A stretch of 64,000 nt of DNA from Candidatus Obscuribacteraceae bacterium (GCA_044226015.1 JBGAHS010000004.1:768001-832000); one strand, 5' to 3'; positions 5,741 to 16,493 are shown, counted from the first letter of the stretch. Notes: generated by a model from the letters alone, not told the origin. Numbers and translations: made by a program.

Positions 5741-8700
5741 TTGGATTCTTTCGGAGCAGGAATGAAAGAAACGAACAACGAATCCACAAAGTCTGAAAAC
5801 CTGGTTCCGCAAGCTAAAGCGGACGAGAGGCTGATTTCTGAGGTTCTTGGCGGGAAGACCGAGCCCGAGTCGACAGGCAAGCATGAAGGTACTGAAGGTG
5901 CCGGTCATTCCTTGTTTCTCAGCGTTATGATGAATAAGGAAGCTGGCTCTGGAAAGTCCGCTGAGACTGTCGCGGACGGAAAAGACGGTAAAGACAAAGA
6001 TTCGAAAACCGGCAAGGATAAGAAGCGTTCATCTGACCCTTCCGAGTCCATCGACGACAGAGAGCATGATAAAGACCCTTCCAGAGAGTCCAGAGAGAAG
6101 GATGAGAAAGCTAAGGACAACGGTCTTGGTTCGGTCGGCCCTAAGCCAACCGAGGTAAAGGCGGATAATTCCGGCGGTTTGCTCGCTCGAGCATCTCTTC
6201 TGGCTATGAATTCGGCGGGCGATTCGATATCTAGTGGCTCAGCAGTAATGAGAGCTGTCGCTTCCGGTGCAGCTGAAATCGCCAGTAAGCATGAGTTCGG
6301 GAAGAATGAAATCGCAGCTAGTCCAAATGAGGGAATTGCTGCTCCGAAAATTGACAATGTAAATATTCCACAAGCATCCGACAAGCATGAAATGCGCCAT
6401 GGATCGGAGATTGATAGCAAGCTGATTGACGTAACAGTTAAGACTGCCGCTCTGGATGTGATGGGAGGCGCTGCGGCATCCATTTCCATTTCAAGGTCTA
6501 TGGCTGCTGATCTCTCTCGAAAAGATGGTGGCGCGCTCGGTGAGCGGAAGATCACTGCACTTGAATCTAGTGTAAGTGCTGCCTTCAATCACGTTGAACC
6601 AAGCTCTAACATGATGAGCCATACGAAGCTCGTGGACGCTGTTGCTCCTGCCTCTGGTCCTGCTGTGGCTTTTCCACCTAAGGTGACTGAGCTAGTCATT
6701 CCTCGCCCGGACACAAAATCGTATAACGAAAATCTTTCGACTCTGCATGTTTCAACACCTAATGTCGGTGATTTCTCTCCCCACATGGTGCCGAAGTCAA
6801 TCGAATCGTCGCCCGCAGCGAATGTATTTGTTCCGCTGAGCAATTTTCATTCTGCAGACATGGGACCGTCTTCGGTGCCGCCAGCTGCTACGCGTGAGCT
6901 TATCGCATATAACTTTCACGACATTCGCGGCAGCGCAAACGATATTCATCCGTCGGTTATCGGTCCAATTATTAGTGGTCCGATTGAGAAACCTCCAGTT
7001 GTAGTGCATGTTCCGACGCCTGATGTGGTTCAGCCCATAGTAAAAGGCGGCACAACGGGCATAGTCGTCAGCGGAAATGGCAGCGACAATTCGTTCGGCA
7101 AAACTCAGATGGCTTTTATTCCCAACTCACAGAAAAACTTCTGGGAGCCAGACCGCCAGGCGGATCAGTACAAGGCTGACAAAGAAGCAGCTGATCGTCG
7201 AACACAAGATGAGAAGGCAAAAGAAGCAAAGGCTGCTGAGCAGAAATTAGCTGAGCAGAAGGCTCTTGAACTTGCAAAAGAGCAGAAGCAGCAAGATCAA
7301 ATAAAAGCACAAGAGCAAGCAAAGTCGCGCGACAAATCAGCTGAGCCAAAGCACAATGCTGAGCTTAAGAATGAACCGGCGAAAAATGAGCCGGGCAAGG
7401 TGCGTGAGGAAACGGTTAACAAAATTCTTGATGCTGCTGTGAAATCATTTCAGGCATCAAAAGCAGGTCATACAATTGATTCCAATAAGATCGAGAGCAT
7501 GACCTTAAATCTTGCGCACCTCAAGAATGCTGAGAATGCTCGCTCGTCTAGTTCTGGCGTGCCAATTTCACAGATAATTTCATTGGCTGGCGGAAAAGAG
7601 CCTGAGAAATCAGGAGTCCACAAGCCCGCAGATGCTGGTCAGCAACAAGCTAAAACTGAGTTGCCGATGGGTCCGGTTGCTTTAACCAAGAATGGTCTGC
7701 CTCAAGAAAAGTCGGCCGCGCCTCTTGAATCAAAAGCTGTGCAAAGCAACCTGGCTCAGTCCTCCGTTGTTTTGAAAGCCATTGAAGCAGGTGCTCGCGG
7801 AACGAACTTAAATATCGAGCAAGCCACTGCAAAAACACAAACAAACAAATCACTTGAGCAAGCTGCTGTTAGTCAACGCACCACTGATGGTATCTTGGGC
7901 GTCAAAAATATCGAGCCTCCCAAGACTCTCTCTGCCACCAAAAATGGTGAATCTAAGTCCGATGTTCTTGTGTCTAAATCAACGGATAGAGTATCTCAAA
8001 TCGCCAAATTTGCAGGCTTGACTGAGGCTAGCGCCAGGCTGTCCAGTGAAGTGAATATCAAGTCTGCTTTGCGTATTAGCCCAGCCGATTTATCTGGAAG
8101 CACTCTTCGTTCATGGATGGGAGACACGGCGAAGTTTAGACCAGATGCTCTGCCACGCGTGACAGAATCTACTCTTGCTGCGCAAAACAGCGCTTTGGGA
8201 CAGCTTAAGATGAACCTCTCTGTTCCTCCAGAGCAACGCAACATACTCAGCGGCAGCAACAAGCAAGTCAATGAACTGAACACGAAAGCTGCTAGCGCTA
8301 ATGCCTCTTCCGAGCTTGCTATCAACGCGGCGAAGAGGCTGAGCGAAGAGCCCCGCTTGCTCGTAAACAAATTGGCAGATGCCTTAAGCAATAGCAAAGC
8401 CTTTGACACATCACTTTCTGCAGCCTCGCCAAGCAACATTGTGCGTGCTAACTCATTGCGTGGCTCTGAGCTTCCAAGTTCTGCAGGATTGGTCAATCTG
8501 GATTACGTAAATCGCTCTCTGGATTCTCTGAAGACGTGGCAAGCTTGGGCTGAGCGAACCCAGGGTTCGCAAAGAAAAGTGAGTTCGAAAAATCGAATTC
8601 CTGAAGATAGAATCGACAGAAGCCTGCTCAAAACTGACTTTTACGACATACCTGAAATCGCCGGTATTGATGCAGAAGACCAGAAACCAGTTGTGCCCAA

Positions 8701-9253
8701 TAAATCTGCTTTCTTGATTGCTCTAATATTGAGCATGTCCGGAGTCAGCCGTCGTCGCGGTTCCACTGTGTCGGCTGAAAATGTGCAAGGACTGTTGAGT
8801 TCTTTCAGCAAAGTTACAGGTTCTGAGGACAACGGAAATTCGTTCAAAAATCTGCATCGTAGAACACACCTCGTTGAACCAGGAGACACCTTGCAATCGA
8901 TAGCTGAGCGCTACTTCAGTGATTCTAGAGTTGCCTGGCTAATTGCCGATTTGAATTCTGCAGCAATCGACGAGCATGGGCTTGACGTTAAGCGAGTAGT
9001 TGAATTGAAGGCAAGGCAATCGCTTGAGCTTCCTGAAGCAGAAGAAGTGCAAGTCTTTCTAGCTGGCATCCCCAGAGATTTCGATATCGATCAGCGGCTG
9101 GTTACTATCGTTAATGACACTATGATTAACATGGAAGTTCTGAAACAATTCCTTGGTCCAATTATCGGCAGTCTGAACGCACAAGACCAATCTGCTGATC
9201 AACAGAAGGAATTGCTTGGAGAATTCACTATCCTCGGAGCCGATTGCGCCTAG
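5741..9253 (+). CDS. Large low-complexity protein with C-terminal LysM domain
   Basis: 1170 aa; HLVEPGDTLQSIAERYF...LIADLN is LysM-like; a hydrophobic helix (FLIALILSMSG) lies just before it. Confidence 0.85.
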   Translation: MDSFGAGMKETNNESTKSENLVPQAKADERLISEVLGGKTEPESTGKHEGTEGAGHSLFLSVMMNKEAGSGKSAETVADGKDGKDKDSKTGKDKKRSSDPSESIDDREHDKDPSRESREKDEKAKDNGLGSVGPKPTEVKADNSGGLLARASLLAMNSAGDSISSGSAVMRAVASGAAEIASKHEFGKNEIAASPNEGIAAPKIDNVNIPQASDKHEMRHGSEIDSKLIDVTVKTAALDVMGGAAASISISRSMAADLSRKDGGALGERKITALESSVSAAFNHVEPSSNMMSHTKLVDAVAPASGPAVAFPPKVTELVIPRPDTKSYNENLSTLHVSTPNVGDFSPHMVPKSIESSPAANVFVPLSNFHSADMGPSSVPPAATRELIAYNFHDIRGSANDIHPSVIGPIISGPIEKPPVVVHVPTPDVVQPIVKGGTTGIVVSGNGSDNSFGKTQMAFIPNSQKNFWEPDRQADQYKADKEAADRRTQDEKAKEAKAAEQKLAEQKALELAKEQKQQDQIKAQEQAKSRDKSAEPKHNAELKNEPAKNEPGKVREETVNKILDAAVKSFQASKAGHTIDSNKIESMTLNLAHLKNAENARSSSSGVPISQIISLAGGKEPEKSGVHKPADAGQQQAKTELPMGPVALTKNGLPQEKSAAPLESKAVQSNLAQSSVVLKAIEAGARGTNLNIEQATAKTQTNKSLEQAAVSQRTTDGILGVKNIEPPKTLSATKNGESKSDVLVSKSTDRVSQIAKFAGLTEASARLSSEVNIKSALRISPADLSGSTLRSWMGDTAKFRPDALPRVTESTLAAQNSALGQLKMNLSVPPEQRNILSGSNKQVNELNTKAASANASSELAINAAKRLSEEPRLLVNKLADALSNSKAFDTSLSAASPSNIVRANSLRGSELPSSAGLVNLDYVNRSLDSLKTWQAWAERTQGSQRKVSSKNRIPEDRIDRSLLKTDFYDIPEIAGIDAEDQKPVVPNKSAFLIALILSMSGVSRRRGSTVSAENVQGLLSSFSKVTGSEDNGNSFKNLHRRTHLVEPGDTLQSIAERYFSDSRVAWLIADLNSAAIDEHGLDVKRVVELKARQSLELPEAEEVQVFLAGIPRDFDIDQRLVTIVNDTMINMEVLKQFLGPIIGSLNAQDQSADQQKELLGEFTILGADCA

Positions 9254-9283
9254 TGCCAGGCTGTGTGAAAGCTAAGACTTTCT

Positions 9284-10471
9284 CTAGTTGCGGCTCGACG
9301 CCCGCAGCCCGTCTTGAATGGATGCGCCGAGGTCTTCAATTGATTGTAGCCTTTTGTTGGGATCTTTCCGCATAGCTTGCTGAACTATATTCACCATCCA
9401 TGGTGGTATGTTCAAGTCTGGAGGTATTGGTGCGGGCTCTGCATTCAAGTGCATAGAGAGTGTTTCGATAACATTCTTGCCCAGGAACGGAGGCTCTCCC
9501 GTCAGGCATTCATAGATGATGCAAGCGCAAGAGTAAACATCAGTGCGGCGGTCAACAGCTTGTCCCTGGCATTGTTCGGGAGACATGTACATCGGGCTTC
9601 CAAACACTTCCCCTGTTGAAGTAAGCCTTGCGATGTTGTCGGGGTCATTTACCTTCACCAGTCCAAAGTCCACCACTTTAGCGACAACGTTGCCCTTGTC
9701 GGGCACAAGCATAATATTTGCTGGTTTTAGATCTCGATGGATAATTCCCTTAGAGTGAGCATGACTCAAGCCTTTGCAAATCTGGACGAAAAAGTTGGCA
9801 GTGTCACGCCATGAAAGACGTCCGACGCGCTTTAATAGCTGCTCAAGGCTCTCTCCTTCGAGGAATTCCATCACGATGAATGGAACTCCATTTGCAGAGA
9901 CCATGAAATCTTCAACTGCCACCAGATTCTCGTGAGAGAGTGTGCTCAGCGCTTTAGCCTCACGCTGAAATCTCTGTACCGCAGTATCATCGTTGGCAAG
10001 GTGCGAGTGCAAGAGTTTTATAGCAACTTCTTTTCGACTTGAAATATGTTTGGCAAGAAAAACGTTGCTCAAACCGCCGCTGCCAAGGGGGCTGACTATT
10101 TCGTAGTATTCTGAAAACTTGCTTCCAGGTGCCAGATAATCAGTGATTCTTGAAAGTTCAAGACCATCTTCCGGGCACTTTCCTGAGTAATCATCAGGAA
10201 ATTCTCGCGCACATACCAGGCAAATCTTTTTGTATTTTCTGGGACCAGAGGACTGTGTTTTTGAGGGCGGACGTACATAGGACACTGTGTCTTTCGCACC
10301 CGGTTTGCTTACTTCACCAGTGGGCTTCGCGATTGCATGCACCGAACTCTGATTTTGATCAGTGACTATATTCGTAGCTTCTTCTTTTTTCTTCTTAAGC
10401 GAGATCACCAAAACTATTGCAATTACTACAACTCCAAGCAATCCGGCGATAATCGCTATTGGTAAACTCAA
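9284..10471 (-). CDS. Membrane-anchored Ser/Thr protein kinase
   Basis: N-terminal TM; CxxC...CPEDG knuckle; LGSGG, VAIK, HRDLKPAN, DFG, YMSPE. Confidence 0.95.
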   Translation of the reverse strand: MSLPIAIIAGLLGVVVIAIVLVISLKKKKEEATNIVTDQNQSSVHAIAKPTGEVSKPGAKDTVSYVRPPSKTQSSGPRKYKKICLVCAREFPDDYSGKCPEDGLELSRITDYLAPGSKFSEYYEIVSPLGSGGLSNVFLAKHISSRKEVAIKLLHSHLANDDTAVQRFQREAKALSTLSHENLVAVEDFMVSANGVPFIVMEFLEGESLEQLLKRVGRLSWRDTANFFVQICKGLSHAHSKGIIHRDLKPANIMLVPDKGNVVAKVVDFGLVKVNDPDNIARLTSTGEVFGSPMYMSPEQCQGQAVDRRTDVYSCACIIYECLTGEPPFLGKNVIETLSMHLNAEPAPIPPDLNIPPWMVNIVQQAMRKDPNKRLQSIEDLGASIQDGLRASSRN

Positions 10472-10518
10472 AATCTTTTCCCTGACACCCCAATCAAATA
10501 TACTACATTAATGAGTGA

Positions 10519-12966
10519 CTAGCTTCGCTTTCTGGCAACTATCTCAAAAACTTGCCCGTGCCGAAATCCAGTTGGAACAATCGGGATCGGACCTTCAACT
10601 TCATTGAACCATTCAAGTTCAAAATCAATAAAAAGCTCTTTTACTTCTGCTTGAGATAAAAATGTCATTCTCTTATTAACTGACCAATCGTCGTTTTTGC
10701 CGAAGAAGTGTCCACTAAACCTTCCGCCTGGCTTGATTGCCCTGCACACATTTTGCCAGAGCCTGCCGAAGTCTTCTGGTGCGCAAAAGGGCAGCGAAAC
10801 ACCAGCGTTTACTAAGCTCACCTCTGGTAACTCGGCGTCCTGCATTTTTCCGAGCCATGTGTCTAGCTGTGCTCGCTCCCAGCTTCCCGTGGCTTCTAAG
10901 AGGCAATTGAGCGCATCCTGGCTTTGATCAACAGCCAGCACCTTCCAGCCCTGCCGGAGCATCTCTTTTGCGTCTCTACCAGAGCCACAACCAAGGTCAA
11001 CTGCATTCTGTGCTTTGTCGAACTTGCTCAATGCGACGATAATCGTGTTATGAGCTTCCTCTCTGGCGACTGCTTTGCTGTATTCGGCCCAAGAGTTCTT
11101 GTATTCAGCAGGTATGCATGCTGTAAAAATCTTCTCGTCATGCAGTTCCTGAAAGCGTTGTATGTAAATTGCAATTGCCTGCACAGAGTTGCGTTGCTCG
11201 TCACTCATTGCTTCTGCAATCAATTGAGAATAAGACCTGCTGCAGCTTCTAGCTCGGTCTATGAGCCATAGCGACAGATGATCTAGTTTCAAAACCCTGG
11301 AAGACCAACTTCTCGGCAGGAAGGCAAAGACTTGTGGAGCTGCTGTAGGAGCAGTGTTGAACTCCGTTCCCGCTTTGATGGCATCGCATATGGTATCAAT
11401 CGAATAGGTGAAACTCTTGATCATCAATTCGGGGTTTACTATTGGCTTAAATGACTTAATTTGTTCTGTTTTTCCGAGATAGATGTCACCAGAAAAGTCG
11501 GTATGTTGATGAATTCTGCCTGCTTCTTGTTTCATTTGTTCGAATTCTGCAAGTTCAAAAATGTAAGGGAAGCTGGCTTGATATTGCTTGCCATGACGGC
11601 GCAGAAATTCGGGAAATCTATCGCCCATTTTCGAATTGTCATTGTAGCGATTTTGAAAAGTGTGAAAAAACTGCAAAAGAATCTCGGACCAGTCGTCCTT
11701 AAGTAAGGCGAAGCACGCAGGGTAGAATCTGCGCATTAATGAATCTCTATTACTATCTCTCAGCCAGGAATAGATGCTGATTGCACGCAGGTCGTATCCA
11801 TCAGTTTCATCTAGCAGCCTGGACGAACGAGGTGCAAATTCAGGTTTGTCCGCTTGTATAGGATCGGTTCCTATAAGTTCGTTCCAGAGAGTAAACCACT
11901 TTCTCTCGTAATTTCTGAGCGTATGCCTCTTAATGTTTGCATCTGTCCCAGGGGGCTCTTGAGAGCTGCTTTTATCTGCCTTTGTTATATTCAAGACTTC
12001 AGGCGCTGCAGCCAGGCTGGCTAGTTCTGCTACTGCAGGTGGTGGCGCTACATCGAACTGTACCTGCGTTGATATTTCGATAGGGCGCTCACGCTCAGGT
12101 TGAATCTGATTGGCTTCAGAATTAGAGTGCTTCTGCCAGATGGACCTGATCTTCTCTAATTCAAACAACAAGTCGGCAAACGAGGGAAAATACTGGTCTC
12201 GTTCAACCATTATGGCTTTAGGTTCAATCATTTTTGAAAGGGCGTGCTCAAGTAAATCGAAAACCGTGTCTGGCACAGGCGAGCCATGTGTATCAATTAT
12301 GCGATTGCCAAATCTTCCAGGACCTGCCAGGTGAATCTGTACAGTTCTTTCAAGCGGTATTCTGTCCAGAAATTCTCTGGCATCAAAACCATGATTTATT
12401 GAATTGACGAAGAGATTGTTGAGATCTAAAAGCAAGCCGCAATCAGCTTCCTCCAGTACTCTGCTAATGAATTCGGCTTCGTCAAAATCGCCAATTGGCA
12501 TCTTTGAGTAGTAAGGAATGTTTTCCAGAATCAGCGGAAATTCAACTGTTTCTTGCGCTTGCTTGACCCGTGCGGCGACATGTTTAACAGCTTCATCAGT
12601 CCATGGTAAAGGGAAGAGATCATTTCCCATCATACCGTCCACGCCGGAAAAACAGAGGTGATCGCTCCACCATTTGAGCTTGAAGTTCTTTGCAAAAAAT
12701 CGGGTCGTCTTCAGCAGTTCTTTGTCGAGTGGGTCAACGCTGCCTATGGAAAGCGAGACGCTGTGCGAAACCAGTGGGAAGTACTCGGCGAAGCTCGCCA
12801 ACCAATTGATGGTGGCATTGTTGGCACGATAATTCTCTGGGGTGAATTCCAGAAAATCGATTGCACTTCTATGTGCGAACGTTTCCTCGCATAGTTCGCC
12901 TCTTAAACCAAGTCCGACTCCAAGTACCGGCATTGCGGACTTCAGTCGCAAGAACTCGCTAACCAT
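10519..12966 (-). CDS. Fusion of DUF692 (MNIO) oxidase, DUF2063-like partner domain and class I SAM methyltransferase
   Basis: MNIO motifs GLGLR, HSVSLSIGS, SDHL, LENI, LDLNN, QIHLAG, DTHG, ERD; middle region YPAC...GDRFPEFL...ELAEFE; C-terminal VDLGCGSGRD and VLAVD. Confidence 0.88.
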   Translation of the reverse strand: MVSEFLRLKSAMPVLGVGLGLRGELCEETFAHRSAIDFLEFTPENYRANNATINWLASFAEYFPLVSHSVSLSIGSVDPLDKELLKTTRFFAKNFKLKWWSDHLCFSGVDGMMGNDLFPLPWTDEAVKHVAARVKQAQETVEFPLILENIPYYSKMPIGDFDEAEFISRVLEEADCGLLLDLNNLFVNSINHGFDAREFLDRIPLERTVQIHLAGPGRFGNRIIDTHGSPVPDTVFDLLEHALSKMIEPKAIMVERDQYFPSFADLLFELEKIRSIWQKHSNSEANQIQPERERPIEISTQVQFDVAPPPAVAELASLAAAPEVLNITKADKSSSQEPPGTDANIKRHTLRNYERKWFTLWNELIGTDPIQADKPEFAPRSSRLLDETDGYDLRAISIYSWLRDSNRDSLMRRFYPACFALLKDDWSEILLQFFHTFQNRYNDNSKMGDRFPEFLRRHGKQYQASFPYIFELAEFEQMKQEAGRIHQHTDFSGDIYLGKTEQIKSFKPIVNPELMIKSFTYSIDTICDAIKAGTEFNTAPTAAPQVFAFLPRSWSSRVLKLDHLSLWLIDRARSCSRSYSQLIAEAMSDEQRNSVQAIAIYIQRFQELHDEKIFTACIPAEYKNSWAEYSKAVAREEAHNTIIVALSKFDKAQNAVDLGCGSGRDAKEMLRQGWKVLAVDQSQDALNCLLEATGSWERAQLDTWLGKMQDAELPEVSLVNAGVSLPFCAPEDFGRLWQNVCRAIKPGGRFSGHFFGKNDDWSVNKRMTFLSQAEVKELFIDFELEWFNEVEGPIPIVPTGFRHGQVFEIVARKRS

Positions 12967-13027
12967 TTGTCTTCTCGTCTCGTGCAGCTGAAGAGGCTAT
13001 GCCCTGAAACTCGTGGCTGGAAACGCC

Positions 13028-13456
13028 CTAAATGTCGTTGTAACGATGGCTGAGCCCAGCACGAAGCGGTTTGTTTTCGTCAGTTCTTTCATTGCGGCGC
13101 GGTGGGCGCTCGTCGCTGCCTGTTCCTATTCTAAGTGGCGGTAACTTATCGTCAGTTTTAGGAGGTTCCGGTTGTGTCGCTGACTTAGCTTCAGTCCCTT
13201 GAGCAGGTTTAGCCTCTGGCTTTGCTGGAAAAGCTGGTATTGACCATGAAAATTGTGGAAGAACGTCAGTCTTGCTCTCTTGCTTGTTTTCAGAAGGCTT
13301 TGGACGGTTCGAACGATCTTTGAACAAATCTCGGAGATGTCCAGAGCCGGTTTCACTTGAGGACTCAGTTCTAGCGGGCTTGCCCCATGCTTCTGCGGCC
13401 AGTCCTGTGGGCGCTTCGCTGGTCTTATTTCCGCCAAAATTGAAATTTGAGTCCAT
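13028..13456 (-). CDS. Disordered hypothetical protein directly upstream of the MNIO fusion
   Basis: 142 aa, Pro/Ser/Glu/Lys-rich, no Cys; GGAGG RBS before the ATG; 61 bp from the next gene on the same strand. Confidence 0.75.
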   Translation of the reverse strand: MDSNFNFGGNKTSEAPTGLAAEAWGKPARTESSSETGSGHLRDLFKDRSNRPKPSENKQESKTDVLPQFSWSIPAFPAKPEAKPAQGTEAKSATQPEPPKTDDKLPPLRIGTGSDERPPRRNERTDENKPLRAGLSHRYNDI

Positions 13457-13591
13457 ACTAAACCTCCGAGGGGTTATATTTTACCCTACGCAGCCCATTG
13501 GTGACCCTTAATTGGAAATATCCGGATATCCAAGGTTTTGGACAGAATGACAAAATTTGCTAGCATAAACAAAGTTATATCTTGAGACCCC

Positions 13592-14629
13592 ATGGAAGTT
13601 ATTCGACGCTTTTATTCGCCACTGTTAGCTTTTTCGGTTTTTTTGCTGGGTATCGCACCAGTTTCGTCCACATTCGCGCTCGACCATAGTGATGCAAGGA
13701 AAATGGCTAATACCTCTGCTGCCAGTTCGTCGAAAGAGAATAGAGGCGCAGAGAGCGTTGCTACAGAGCCGGAAAAGTCCGTTGACTTAAGCACTGTGAC
13801 AAAGTGGATAAAAGACCATCACTACAAACAAGCTGAGTCTGCCCTTACCGCAATGATTAAGGCGAAGCCTGCTGATGCGGTCGTGCATCAAACCTATGGG
13901 CTACTTTTGCGCGAAACAGGGCAAATCGACAAAGCTTTAAGTGAGTATGCCAGAGCTGCTGAACTGGATGCGTCGAGCTCTGTTCCTTTAATAGCGCTCT
14001 CGGAACTGTCGCTCAAACAACTAGATCTTGATGGCAGCTTGAGTTATGCAGAGCAAGCCGTTGCCTGTGAGCCCGCCTCTAAAGCAGCGAGAACAGCTTT
14101 AATTGAGGCGTTGCTTCAGAGTGAACAAATCTCAGAGGCAGAACGTCAGCTCAAGTACATTCAAGAAAAGGATTTGCGAACTCCGTACATGGAGATGCTT
14201 CAATATAGATTGATGCAGAAGAAGGGTGATTACCTATCTGCTAGAAAGCATATGCAAGCGGCACTCGAGTCGCCGGGTAATGAAGTTCCTGTGTCGTTGC
14301 GTCTTGAGCAATCTGACTTGCTTCAAACTCTGGGCGAATATGCTGCTGCAAAACGTGAGCTGGAGAAAATTCTTGCTGGTGATCCTGATCTACTTGAGGG
14401 GCGGCTAAAGTTGGCTCGCCTTATGGAAACACAGTTTCATGATTACGCAGCAGCAATGCAAAATTACAATGAGGCACTCAAGTTAGATCCACTGTCGGCA
14501 GCTGCCATGGCTGGAATCGAACGCTGTCAGACAAAACGGCAAAATCTGGCTCTGCAACTGAAAATTTGCTTTCGTGATTTCTGGGCTTGGTTAGATGCCC
14601 AATCACGCTCAAATAGCGATAAAAAGTAG
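13592..14629 (+). CDS. Secreted TPR protein
   Basis: Signal peptide; multiple TPR-like helical repeats. Confidence 0.85.
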   Translation: MEVIRRFYSPLLAFSVFLLGIAPVSSTFALDHSDARKMANTSAASSSKENRGAESVATEPEKSVDLSTVTKWIKDHHYKQAESALTAMIKAKPADAVVHQTYGLLLRETGQIDKALSEYARAAELDASSSVPLIALSELSLKQLDLDGSLSYAEQAVACEPASKAARTALIEALLQSEQISEAERQLKYIQEKDLRTPYMEMLQYRLMQKKGDYLSARKHMQAALESPGNEVPVSLRLEQSDLLQTLGEYAAAKRELEKILAGDPDLLEGRLKLARLMETQFHDYAAAMQNYNEALKLDPLSAAAMAGIERCQTKRQNLALQLKICFRDFWAWLDAQSRSNSDKK

Positions 14630-14635
14630 TTTGCT

Positions 14636-14917
14636 CTATTGTAGTCGCGAGCGACGTGTTGCCTTTTGTTCTGGGCAGAATGGCAGCGTTCCGTCTTGGG
14701 GAATTAGCATTACACATCTGCATGCTTCTTCTGGAATGAGTGCAATGCATTTTGCATCAAGCTCTGGCGCAAGCTTACTCAAATCTGGCATAACTCTGGG
14801 GTTTCTGCTGTTCTCCATAAGCAAATCAAGCGCTTGTTGAATCAATGCGTTTTCTAGATCACCAACGCCCACTCTTTCTGAATGCTCTCTTTCTGAGACT
14901 CTAGATTCTTGCTGCAT
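14636..14917 (-). CDS. Small hypothetical protein with Cys-containing C-terminus
   Basis: 93 aa from the ATG at 14917 (MQQESRV...); C-terminus KCIALIPEEACRC...FCP. Confidence 0.6.
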   Translation of the reverse strand: MQQESRVSEREHSERVGVGDLENALIQQALDLLMENSRNPRVMPDLSKLAPELDAKCIALIPEEACRCVMLIPQDGTLPFCPEQKATRRSRLQ

Positions 14918-15067
14918 TTTTCTGAACCCCTTTCCCTGCAAATGGATTTTGCTGGAAATTAACCCGTGTTCATATCTACACGCGAAGCGAAATTTGTAGA
15001 CAGTAAAACGCTTGTCCCGCAAGGATTTAAGCTGGGCCGCTAATTAATTGAATGATTCCCTGAACGC

Positions 15068-15106
15068 AAAAATGGAGGGCTAAACTTTCAGCACCTCCAT
15101 TCTTTT
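15068..15106 (-). terminator. Rho-independent terminator downstream of purA
   Basis: AATGGAGG...CCTCCATT stem with A/T runs on both sides. Confidence 0.6.
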
Positions 15107-15140
15107 GTATTGGATCTGTTGTTTGTGATTCAGCCCGAGC

Positions 15141-16493
<1,353 letters not shown>

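Follow-up and report, generated by a model that had tools for sequence, protein, structure and literature searches.

A predicted single-chain oxidase-methyltransferase and its candidate cysteine-repeat precursors in Obscuribacterales

A 64,000-nucleotide stretch of DNA from Candidatus Obscuribacteraceae bacterium (GCA_044226015.1 JBGAHS010000004.1:768001-832000; hereafter the window) encodes, on the minus strand at positions 10519..12966, an 815-aa protein that fuses an oxidative enzyme dependent on multinuclear non-haem iron (MNIO), a PME/HvfC-like partner domain and a class I S-adenosylmethionine (SAM) methyltransferase. We propose, with a probability of roughly 0.47, that this fusion is the single maturation enzyme of a two-gene system of the ribosomally made, post-translationally modified peptide (RiPP) type in Obscuribacterales, which would convert Cys to 5-thiooxazole and then methylate the sulfur. 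The likely substrates, judging by sequence and gene context, form a newly spotted family of Cys-repeat proteins of non-photosynthetic cyanobacteria, which are 160-375 aa long, share a leader helix and carry no signal peptide; taken together, their role as substrates and the action of the methyltransferase on them can be asserted with good confidence. In the proposed scheme, the partner domain would bind the leader helix of a long signal-less precursor, the MNIO would carry out a four-electron oxidation of each core Cys, by kinship most likely to 5-thiooxazole (-4 Da), and the TehB-like domain with SAM would S-methylate the freed heteroaryl thiol to 5-(methylthio)oxazole. The net predicted shift is +10 Da per Cys, and the product would be unreactive to iodoacetamide. 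We favour this chemistry because the MNIO is HvfB/BufB-like, the Cys of each repeat is single and internal, and the TehB-like domain sits on a short fixed junction.

The fusion occupies one uninterrupted frame with zero internal stops and is conserved in 24 other homologues, which upholds the three-domain gene of a preliminary description made from this DNA; the DUF692 metal-ligand motifs and the DLGCGSG motif listed there are all present, and the MNIO and methyltransferase families both score above their cut-offs. The MNIO domain (DUF692/PF05114; 12136..12921, residues 16-277) matches Pfam PF05114 with 288.6 bits (cut-off 25) over profile positions 1-262 of 263, and the structure 3BWW with E 7e-52. 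A variable linker delimited by the alignment of homologues (11923..12126, residues 281-348) leads to the partner domain (11107..11922, residues 349-620), in which profile matches distinguish a DUF2063-like helical part and a putative RRE-type part. The TehB-like methyltransferase domain, also placed by profile matches (10528..11097, residues 624-813; all these domains lie on the minus strand), reaches 40.5 bits with Pfam Methyltransf_25 over residues 656-748 (cut-off 27) and 29.5 bits with Pfam TehB over residues 636-790 (cut-off 20.4), and has the DxGxGxG motif I and the acidic residue after strand 2 of class I SAM enzymes. The middle segment had been called DUF2063-like; this holds in so far as NCBIfam HvfC matches residues 388-614 with E 3e-11 (model positions 18-234 of 237; 43-47 bits against a cut-off of 142) and all 17 of 17 aligned partner domains, fused and stand-alone, whereas DUF2063 itself reaches 20.7 bits over residues 394-455, below the Pfam cut-off of 27.2. 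The top PDB match of the partner-domain profile is 3DEE (E 3.5e-4), confined to the N-terminal half; for the C-terminal half we infer an RRE fold, the PqqD match having an E of only 0.93. The partner could be named PME-type 2 in the terms of PMC12452194 (published systems are described here as far as the available text of the cited papers goes).

The domain junctions, which might have arisen in assembly, are genuine. A contig from run X2, belonging to a study other than that of X1, the possible source run, spans positions 9200-15760 with 7 substitutions and 0 gaps (the comparison is of contigs rather than raw reads), and therefore neither junction is an assembly artefact. The four strain differences listed inside the open reading frame (ORF) are all synonymous (among 40 of the 53 difference rows).

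A search for the domain architecture returned 24 other full-length proteins with both MNIO and methyltransferase families, at 35-74% identity, among 36 matches of 448-1427 aa (8,000 candidates scored). Named full-length homologues come from Cyanobacteria bacterium SZAS-4 and Candidatus Obscuribacterales, and the titles of all ten full or near-full-length matches from the genome collection read Melainabacteria, Obscuribacterales or SZAS-4. The best 150 representatives of 50% clusters, whose partner calls use lineage-specific hidden Markov models (HMMs) made for this analysis, include 2 three-domain proteins, 26 with MNIO and partner but no methyltransferase, and 122 with MNIO only, many of 500-630 aa. 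By these counts an MNIO-partner fusion is no rarity, whereas the form with all three domains has a narrow distribution. Across the 25 aligned fusions, H68, H103, E148, D181, N184, H212, D225, H227, E255 and D257 are invariant; these putative iron ligands and base are assigned by motif from published MNIOs, and correspond by position and motif, not by alignment, to the DybH iron ligands H65/H102, D179/H210 and D228/H230 (PMC13733907). D257, in the ERD motif, is the motif equivalent of the FonB base D249. The SAM motif residues D657, G659, G661 and G663 are likewise invariant (25/25), and position 680 is Asp in 24 proteins and Glu in one. Median identity to the query in the same alignment is 68% for the MNIO, 21% for the linker, 49% for the partner and 56% for the methyltransferase; the length of the linker between MNIO and partner ranges between 34 and 132 aa, and the partner-methyltransferase junction is short, at 11-20 aa. 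The dN/dS of the linker is 0.28-0.47 where computable, that of the methyltransferase 0.11 (L116 vs L117) and 0.09 (L116 vs L057), most other pairs being saturated and one too close to inform. On these ratios the methyltransferase domain is under purifying selection.

In relatives, the fused loci carry just upstream one or two genes of 200-375 aa, whose products have an acidic start, a helix L-D-x-x-L-I-x-Q-A-L and one-Cys repeats. The cores hold 4-19 Cys, spaced mostly by 14-28 residues, with the consensus [D/E/G]-[V/I/L]-[F/Y/V]-[A/L]-Cys-[V/A/S]-[A/S/E]-[R/K/I]-I-P, and Cys is their only invariant residue. In a crude hydropathy test, 15 of 16 precursors peak at 0.2-1.4 and one, with an upstream start, at 2.18, against 2.6-2.8 in four signal-bearing controls. 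NCBIfam models of RiPP precursors matched 0 of 9 precursors (7 methyltransferase-linked, 2 not), and no CPxCGxG motif was seen in the precursor sequences inspected. The presence of the methyltransferase tracks the core type: K or R follows Cys at 1/146 positions in 16 methyltransferase-linked precursors, vs 60/65 in 7 precursors of methyltransferase-free clusters, hand-picked from the loci examined. Two of these seven are also signal-less and accompany MNIO-partner fusions.

Two candidate precursors were found in the genome under study. The window encodes a 93-aa ORF with 4 Cys and no signal peptide (14636..14917, minus strand), recognized by the leader HMM; it has an acidic start, a leader helix ALIQQALDLL, a second leader motif LAPELDAKCI and one or two core-like units. 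It occupies the position of a 312-aa ORF with 11 repeat Cys in the related locus L036, with which the window shares the gene order purA, precursor, TPR, fusion, kinase. The other candidate, L155, is an orphan of 345 aa with 11 Cys, 10 of them in repeats of two types (G000:C1:887044-888081, plus strand), and MNIO is absent among its neighbours. The leader HMM was built from L035 and L036 only, which excludes the orphan and avoids the circularity of a version containing it; among 45,558 frames of the genome it picks out these two, the local ORF with E 1e-8 and the orphan with E 1.3e-7, the next value being 0.13. An 11-row leader alignment missed the 345-aa orphan, and a regular-expression scan for Cys cores was too strict and missed it as well; additional leader-less substrates may exist in this genome. 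The orphan is probably its main substrate, modified in trans, and the local 93-aa copy probably a shrunken second substrate. A frameshifted or collapsed local precursor was also considered; neither an indel nor a joint is seen at this place in contigs X1, X2 and X3, although contigs drop rare variants. The enzyme had been called self-contained, which is apt for the protein; putative dedicated precursor genes exist and had been overlooked.

The association of methyltransferase, MNIO and precursor recurs across the family. MNIO genes occur in 100 of 104 family genomes, and 25 genomes have a methyltransferase homologue at E<=1e-15, in 27 places. The 16 best places comprise 10 fusions, 5 separate genes beside an MNIO-partner fusion and a precursor (G029, G019, G106, G070 and G074; the G019 and G106 precursors are identical and count as one) and 1 stand-alone gene. 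A precursor lies within about 2.5 kb in 8/10 fused and 5/5 adjacent loci. In G104, 178 bp separate a contig end from the start of the fusion, and the precursor lies on a different contig; in G096 (66% complete), a precursor was not found near the fusion. The 11 weaker places have no MNIO in the 6-11 kb examined, several being cut by contig ends, and 23 further loci from a 301-genome phylum search show no MNIO, partner or leader within 1.5 kb. In a quick tree of the methyltransferases, 11 fused proteins, 4 adjacent ones and one further protein form a single group (SH-aLRT 85), and three gene orders are kept: methyltransferase-precursor-MNIO, methyltransferase-MNIO-precursor and the C-terminal fusion. 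At the orthologous kdpDE locus, which holds the system in L116, three genomes (L194-L196) lack the fusion, and their leader ORF has 0-2 Cys and no Cys repeats; one deletion could explain the loss of both, and the locus indicates that leader ORFs can persist alone. The linkage and core counts come from related, non-independent genomes and describe a pattern rather than a statistical test. The coupled oxidation and methylation of one substrate suggested in the preliminary description gains support from this genome context, through the same methyltransferase lineage adjacent in five loci, the tree and the dN/dS. The methyltransferase might instead be a passenger, fused by proximity and serving an unrelated substrate while the MNIO-partner half acts alone. 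This account is favoured by L038/P0024, a member of the fused MNIO group that lacks the methyltransferase, and by G022:C8, one of the 16 best homologues, which stands alone with no MNIO; we nonetheless regard it as very improbable, the methyltransferase having been kept by the MNIO in three gene orders, across 35-74% identity and with a dN/dS of about 0.1.

The nature of the oxidized product is judged here from the class of the MNIO. NCBIfam models rank HvfB first (254 bits, cut-off 360), followed by BufB (245, cut-off 310), ApyH (123), ChrH (58, cut-off 600) and MbnB (46), all below cut-off. A quick MNIO tree gathers the fused enzymes in one group of 15 rows (SH-aLRT 95), sister to the split G070/G074 loci (92) and nested among family MNIOs having Sec/Cys-Lys precursors; split, two-domain and three-domain stages of one fusion are visible within one bacterial family. 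Characterised MNIO-PME1 systems all turn Cys into 5-thiooxazole (-4 Da), whose thiol is readily alkylated; the products form aggregates and use the free thiol to bind Cu; two repeats make the minimal substrate, and FonBC favours a small residue, Gly or Ala, after Cys (PMC13097082). TmoS, a SAM enzyme, methylates an MNIO-made thiol only and not unmodified Cys (PMC9303977). A methyl cap in our system would remove the copper-binding thiol, preventing disulfide formation or metal-driven aggregation in the cytoplasm; what is made would therefore probably differ from a standard copper captophorin.

A variant with the same substrates and order of steps, in which oxidation of Cys by the MNIO would lead, as with TglH/TmoH or ChrH/DybH, to a thiohemiaminal, a thioamide, an enethiol or a rearranged backbone and the methyltransferase would trap the sulfur of that product, we consider unlikely but worth naming. 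It has precedents in TmoHI/TmoS (PMC9303977) and in ChrH, whose S-methylated product is likewise shifted by +10 Da (PMC13056109); moreover, the cores are unlike every captophorin motif class described in PMC13097082, and long branches lead to the fused clade. Yet the sequence is far closer to HvfB/BufB than to ChrH, ApyH or TglH, and the Cys here are internal, single and repeated, whereas TmoH and ChrH target a C-terminal Cys or CPACG motifs.

The methyltransferase family profile ranks TehB structures first in the PDB (4DQ0 and 2XVA, E 4e-14, positions 27-203 of 205). TehB is a tellurite/chalcogen methyltransferase. These best solved relatives are distant: single-sequence matches to TehB structures have E of about 0.003-0.03, and the curated TehB equivalog cut-offs are not reached (25-39 bits vs 218-303). 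An ESM Atlas search with the methyltransferase returned generic class I methyltransferase/TehB clusters only. The kinship would allow a different role, in which the peptide would be a cytoplasmic thiooxazole sponge for metals or metalloids, and the TehB-like domain would act not on the peptide but on what it captures or what is released, methylating selenium, tellurium, sulfide or a small thiol. Beyond the TehB structures, this accords with the source name 'tellurite methyltransferase' of many stand-alone homologues, with TOBE, SBP_bac_11/ABC, TauE, 4Fe-4S and cysteine-synthase-type genes at many of the 23 phylum-search loci, and with the Cu binding of captophorins through their free thiol (PMC13097082). 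We hold it to be quite unlikely: a small-molecule detoxifier needs no fusion to a peptide-binding domain with a short conserved junction, methyltransferase presence follows the precursor core type, and the loci contain no conserved metal-resistance gene, an efflux pair standing beside L035 only. Methylation of the precursor at an atom other than sulfur (N, O or C), either in the MNIO product or in a neighbouring residue, seems a shade less probable again. A precedent is ApyS, which methylates a carbon of the keto acid that ApyHI produces (PMC10635010), and there are weak matches to peptide N-methyltransferases, the daptide enzyme (NCBIfam, E 1.6e-9) and the cypemycin enzyme; both fall below TehB on the family profile, and the invariance of Cys alone among repeat residues points to sulfur.

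Several observations weigh against the thiooxazole and S-methylation scheme or limit it. The MNIO and partner are both below curated equivalog cut-offs, and the 5-thiooxazole outcome is therefore an extrapolation; ChrH/DybH-type and TglH-type MNIOs yield other Cys products (PMC13733907, PMC13056109), and the residue commonest after Cys is Val (30%), at odds with the Gly/Ala preference of FonBC (PMC13097082). The methyltransferase family is widespread alone, with 179 short homologues at E<=1e-10, and by sequence it is without a characterised close member. The local precursor is small, L118 is fused and yet no precursor was found in 14 kb, and L038/P0024, of 625 aa, lies inside the fused MNIO group with a stop before the methyltransferase and no precursor found nearby. 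Leader ORFs persist without Cys or enzyme in L165, L167, L168 and L176, so the leader may have another job. To these are added the identical G019 and G106 precursors, the relatedness of the genomes and the hand-picked comparison set given above, and the trees, whose supports are SH-aLRT values from quick searches and in which L040 and L041 take no firm position among the MNIOs.

The proposed system would work like a captophorin maturase followed by a TmoS-like step, and not like a ChrH or pearlin system. With the captophorins FonABC, HvfABC, NgoABC and BufABC (PMC13097082) it shares an MNIO closest to HvfB/BufB and an HvfC-like partner, both of which score below the curated cut-offs, as well as a multi-Cys repeat precursor and the ERD base; it differs in having one chain rather than two, an additional SAM methyltransferase, Sec-less precursors with a leader helix, cores of the hydrophobic-Cys-small type instead of EGKCG, Cys-Lys or DUF2282, and no DoxX seen. 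The Sec signal with DUF2282, Lys-Cys or Cys-Lys motif that marks captophorin precursors is missing here. Gln follows the ERD base, unlike in captophorins; Q258 was rejected as a methyltransferase-specific determinant, since ERDQ also occurs in some relatives without methyltransferase. The TmoABHIS(D) pathway to 3-thiahomoleucine in Tistrella mobilis (PMC9303977) likewise combines an MNIO and RRE partner with a SAM methyltransferase acting on the MNIO-made thiol only, but employs separate genes, a single C-terminal Cys added by PEARL and excision of the beta-carbon. TmoB, TmoD and a protease are also required there and are not seen here; TmoS is set beside the fusion by description only. The PEARL and short scaffold peptide of pearlin systems (TglH/TmoH) are absent among the 19 window ORFs scanned, the search being limited to the window. 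ChrH/DybH has in common Cys oxidation and S-methylation with a net +10 Da (PMC13056109) and action on proteins >30 kDa, including the Melainabacteria example MelA1; it differs in its CPACGMG motif, macrocycle and hydantoin, a partner that is not needed, and methylation without a dedicated gene, possibly by an E. coli enzyme (PMC13056109, PMC13733907). ApyHI/ApyS of the aminopyruvatide pathway (PMC10635010) also places a methyltransferase after an MNIO-RRE pair, although on a C-terminal Asp, with MppJ-like C-methylation, separate genes and a required P450. An engineered HvfBC fusion (bioRxiv 10.64898/2026.07.17.739211) is active as an MNIO-partner single chain, more so than the co-expressed subunits, but is artificial and has no methyltransferase.

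Neither the three-domain fusion nor the precursor family was found in the literature searched, outside which lie subscription journals and bioRxiv supplements. The preliminary description knew of no characterised example of this architecture, and for the fusion this still stands in that literature; an MNIO followed by a separate S-methyltransferase has, however, been characterised (TmoS, PMC9303977). The word 'methyltransferase' does not occur in the available text of the MNIO survey PMC12452194, where the sole enzyme fusion named is MNIO-nitroreductase. The 'adjamnio' precursors of that survey, which are rich in Cys, lack a signal and go with PME-type 2 partners, might overlap with the present family; the two are set side by side by description, not on the Fig. 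S3 alignments. The supplements of PMC12452194 and PMC13097082 contain neither the two fused-protein accessions nor the taxon names looked for, PMC12538549 has no relevant passage, and searches on Obscuribacter with RiPP turned up only ecology and phylogeny papers. S-methyl-thiooxazole or another S-methylated heterocycle from such a system is not found in the literature searched. We tentatively put at slightly less than even odds that this is a new RiPP class, in which one chain would processively convert up to about 19 Cys of a 20-40 kDa cytoplasmic protein to S-methyl-thiooxazoles or another S-methylated heterocycle, an MNIO-PME product stripped of copper-binding thiols, with substrates recognized by their leader even when encoded elsewhere. 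In all characterised MNIO-PME products the thiol reportedly stays free, and as a rule they bind copper; a methyltransferase dedicated to capping would show that products with other purposes, too, come from this largest group of MNIOs, and the widespread uncharacterised TehB-like family would gain a heteroaryl-thiol methylating activity. The proposed system needs no more than two genes, its candidate substrates are specified, and the mass shift predicted for it is clear. It may also bear on the question, raised in PMC13056109, of what methylates MNIO-made thiols. For peptide engineering, an oxidase and a methyltransferase in one chain, used with a portable leader, would make a handy tool.

Among the neighbours of the fusion in the window, a TPR protein gene (13592..14629, plus strand) lies between precursor and enzyme, an arrangement repeated in L036 only, and is probably not part of the system. 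A Ser/Thr kinase gene (9284..10471, minus strand) begins 47 bp downstream of the fusion; it is also downstream in L036, but in none of the remaining fused loci for which the downstream side was covered. Both genes were ruled out as core parts because they are common to L036 only. A low-complexity ORF of 142 aa directly upstream of the fusion (13028..13456, minus strand) was rejected as a substrate, having no Cys, leader, family, homologue in other loci or second copy in the genome. Further along, positions 5741-9253 (plus strand) encode a low-complexity protein of 1170 aa that has just one Cys and weakly matches LysM at its C-terminus (E 0.008). No transporter, protease or DoxX gene is conserved across the loci seen. 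Promoter and terminator scans stay at chance level (10 vs 6.2 +/- 2.5 and 8 vs 7.4 +/- 2.6).

The genome has four MNIO genes including the fusion, on contigs other than that of the 345-aa precursor. The three further ones (G000:C10:13054-13845, C4:278083-278850 and C8:704299-704928; L052-L054) include one with a separate partner and a signal-bearing SCK-repeat precursor, a 455-aa MNIO preceded by a Gly/Cys-tailed membrane protein, and a divergent 422-aa MNIO. Elsewhere, signal-less precursors with 16-25 Cys in Lys-Cys-Lys repeats stand beside methyltransferase-free MNIO-partner fusions (L042:6115-7005, L045:8492-9475) and represent a sister system. In L165, L167, L168, L176 and L194-L196, leader ORFs are intact without a nearby enzyme; they measure 219-340 aa, contain 0-2 Cys and have bodies rich in Gly and Ala. 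In L170 and L171 a leader-only ORF is directly followed by a partner-only gene, so that leader and partner have stayed together, with no MNIO seen within the 3 kb examined. The identical precursor and gene layout of L040 (G019:C22) and L180 (G106:C32), two genomes of different assigned genera, point to misbinning or recent transfer.

Stand-alone methyltransferase homologues in other Cyanobacteriota (L197-L215, L217, L219, L220) often occur amid TOBE, SBP_bac_11/ABC, 4Fe-4S ferredoxin, FeoA, TauE, CBS and PALP genes, of which the SBP_bac_11/ABC genes presumably serve molybdate-like uptake; four stand-alone loci adjoin an ARD-family gene, and the stand-alone family seems uncharacterised. Five metagenomic proteins (P0090, P0128, P0142, P0144, P0145) fuse the methyltransferase family to a membrane dipeptidase (PF01244), which would fit the breakdown of thiol conjugates coupled to S-methylation.

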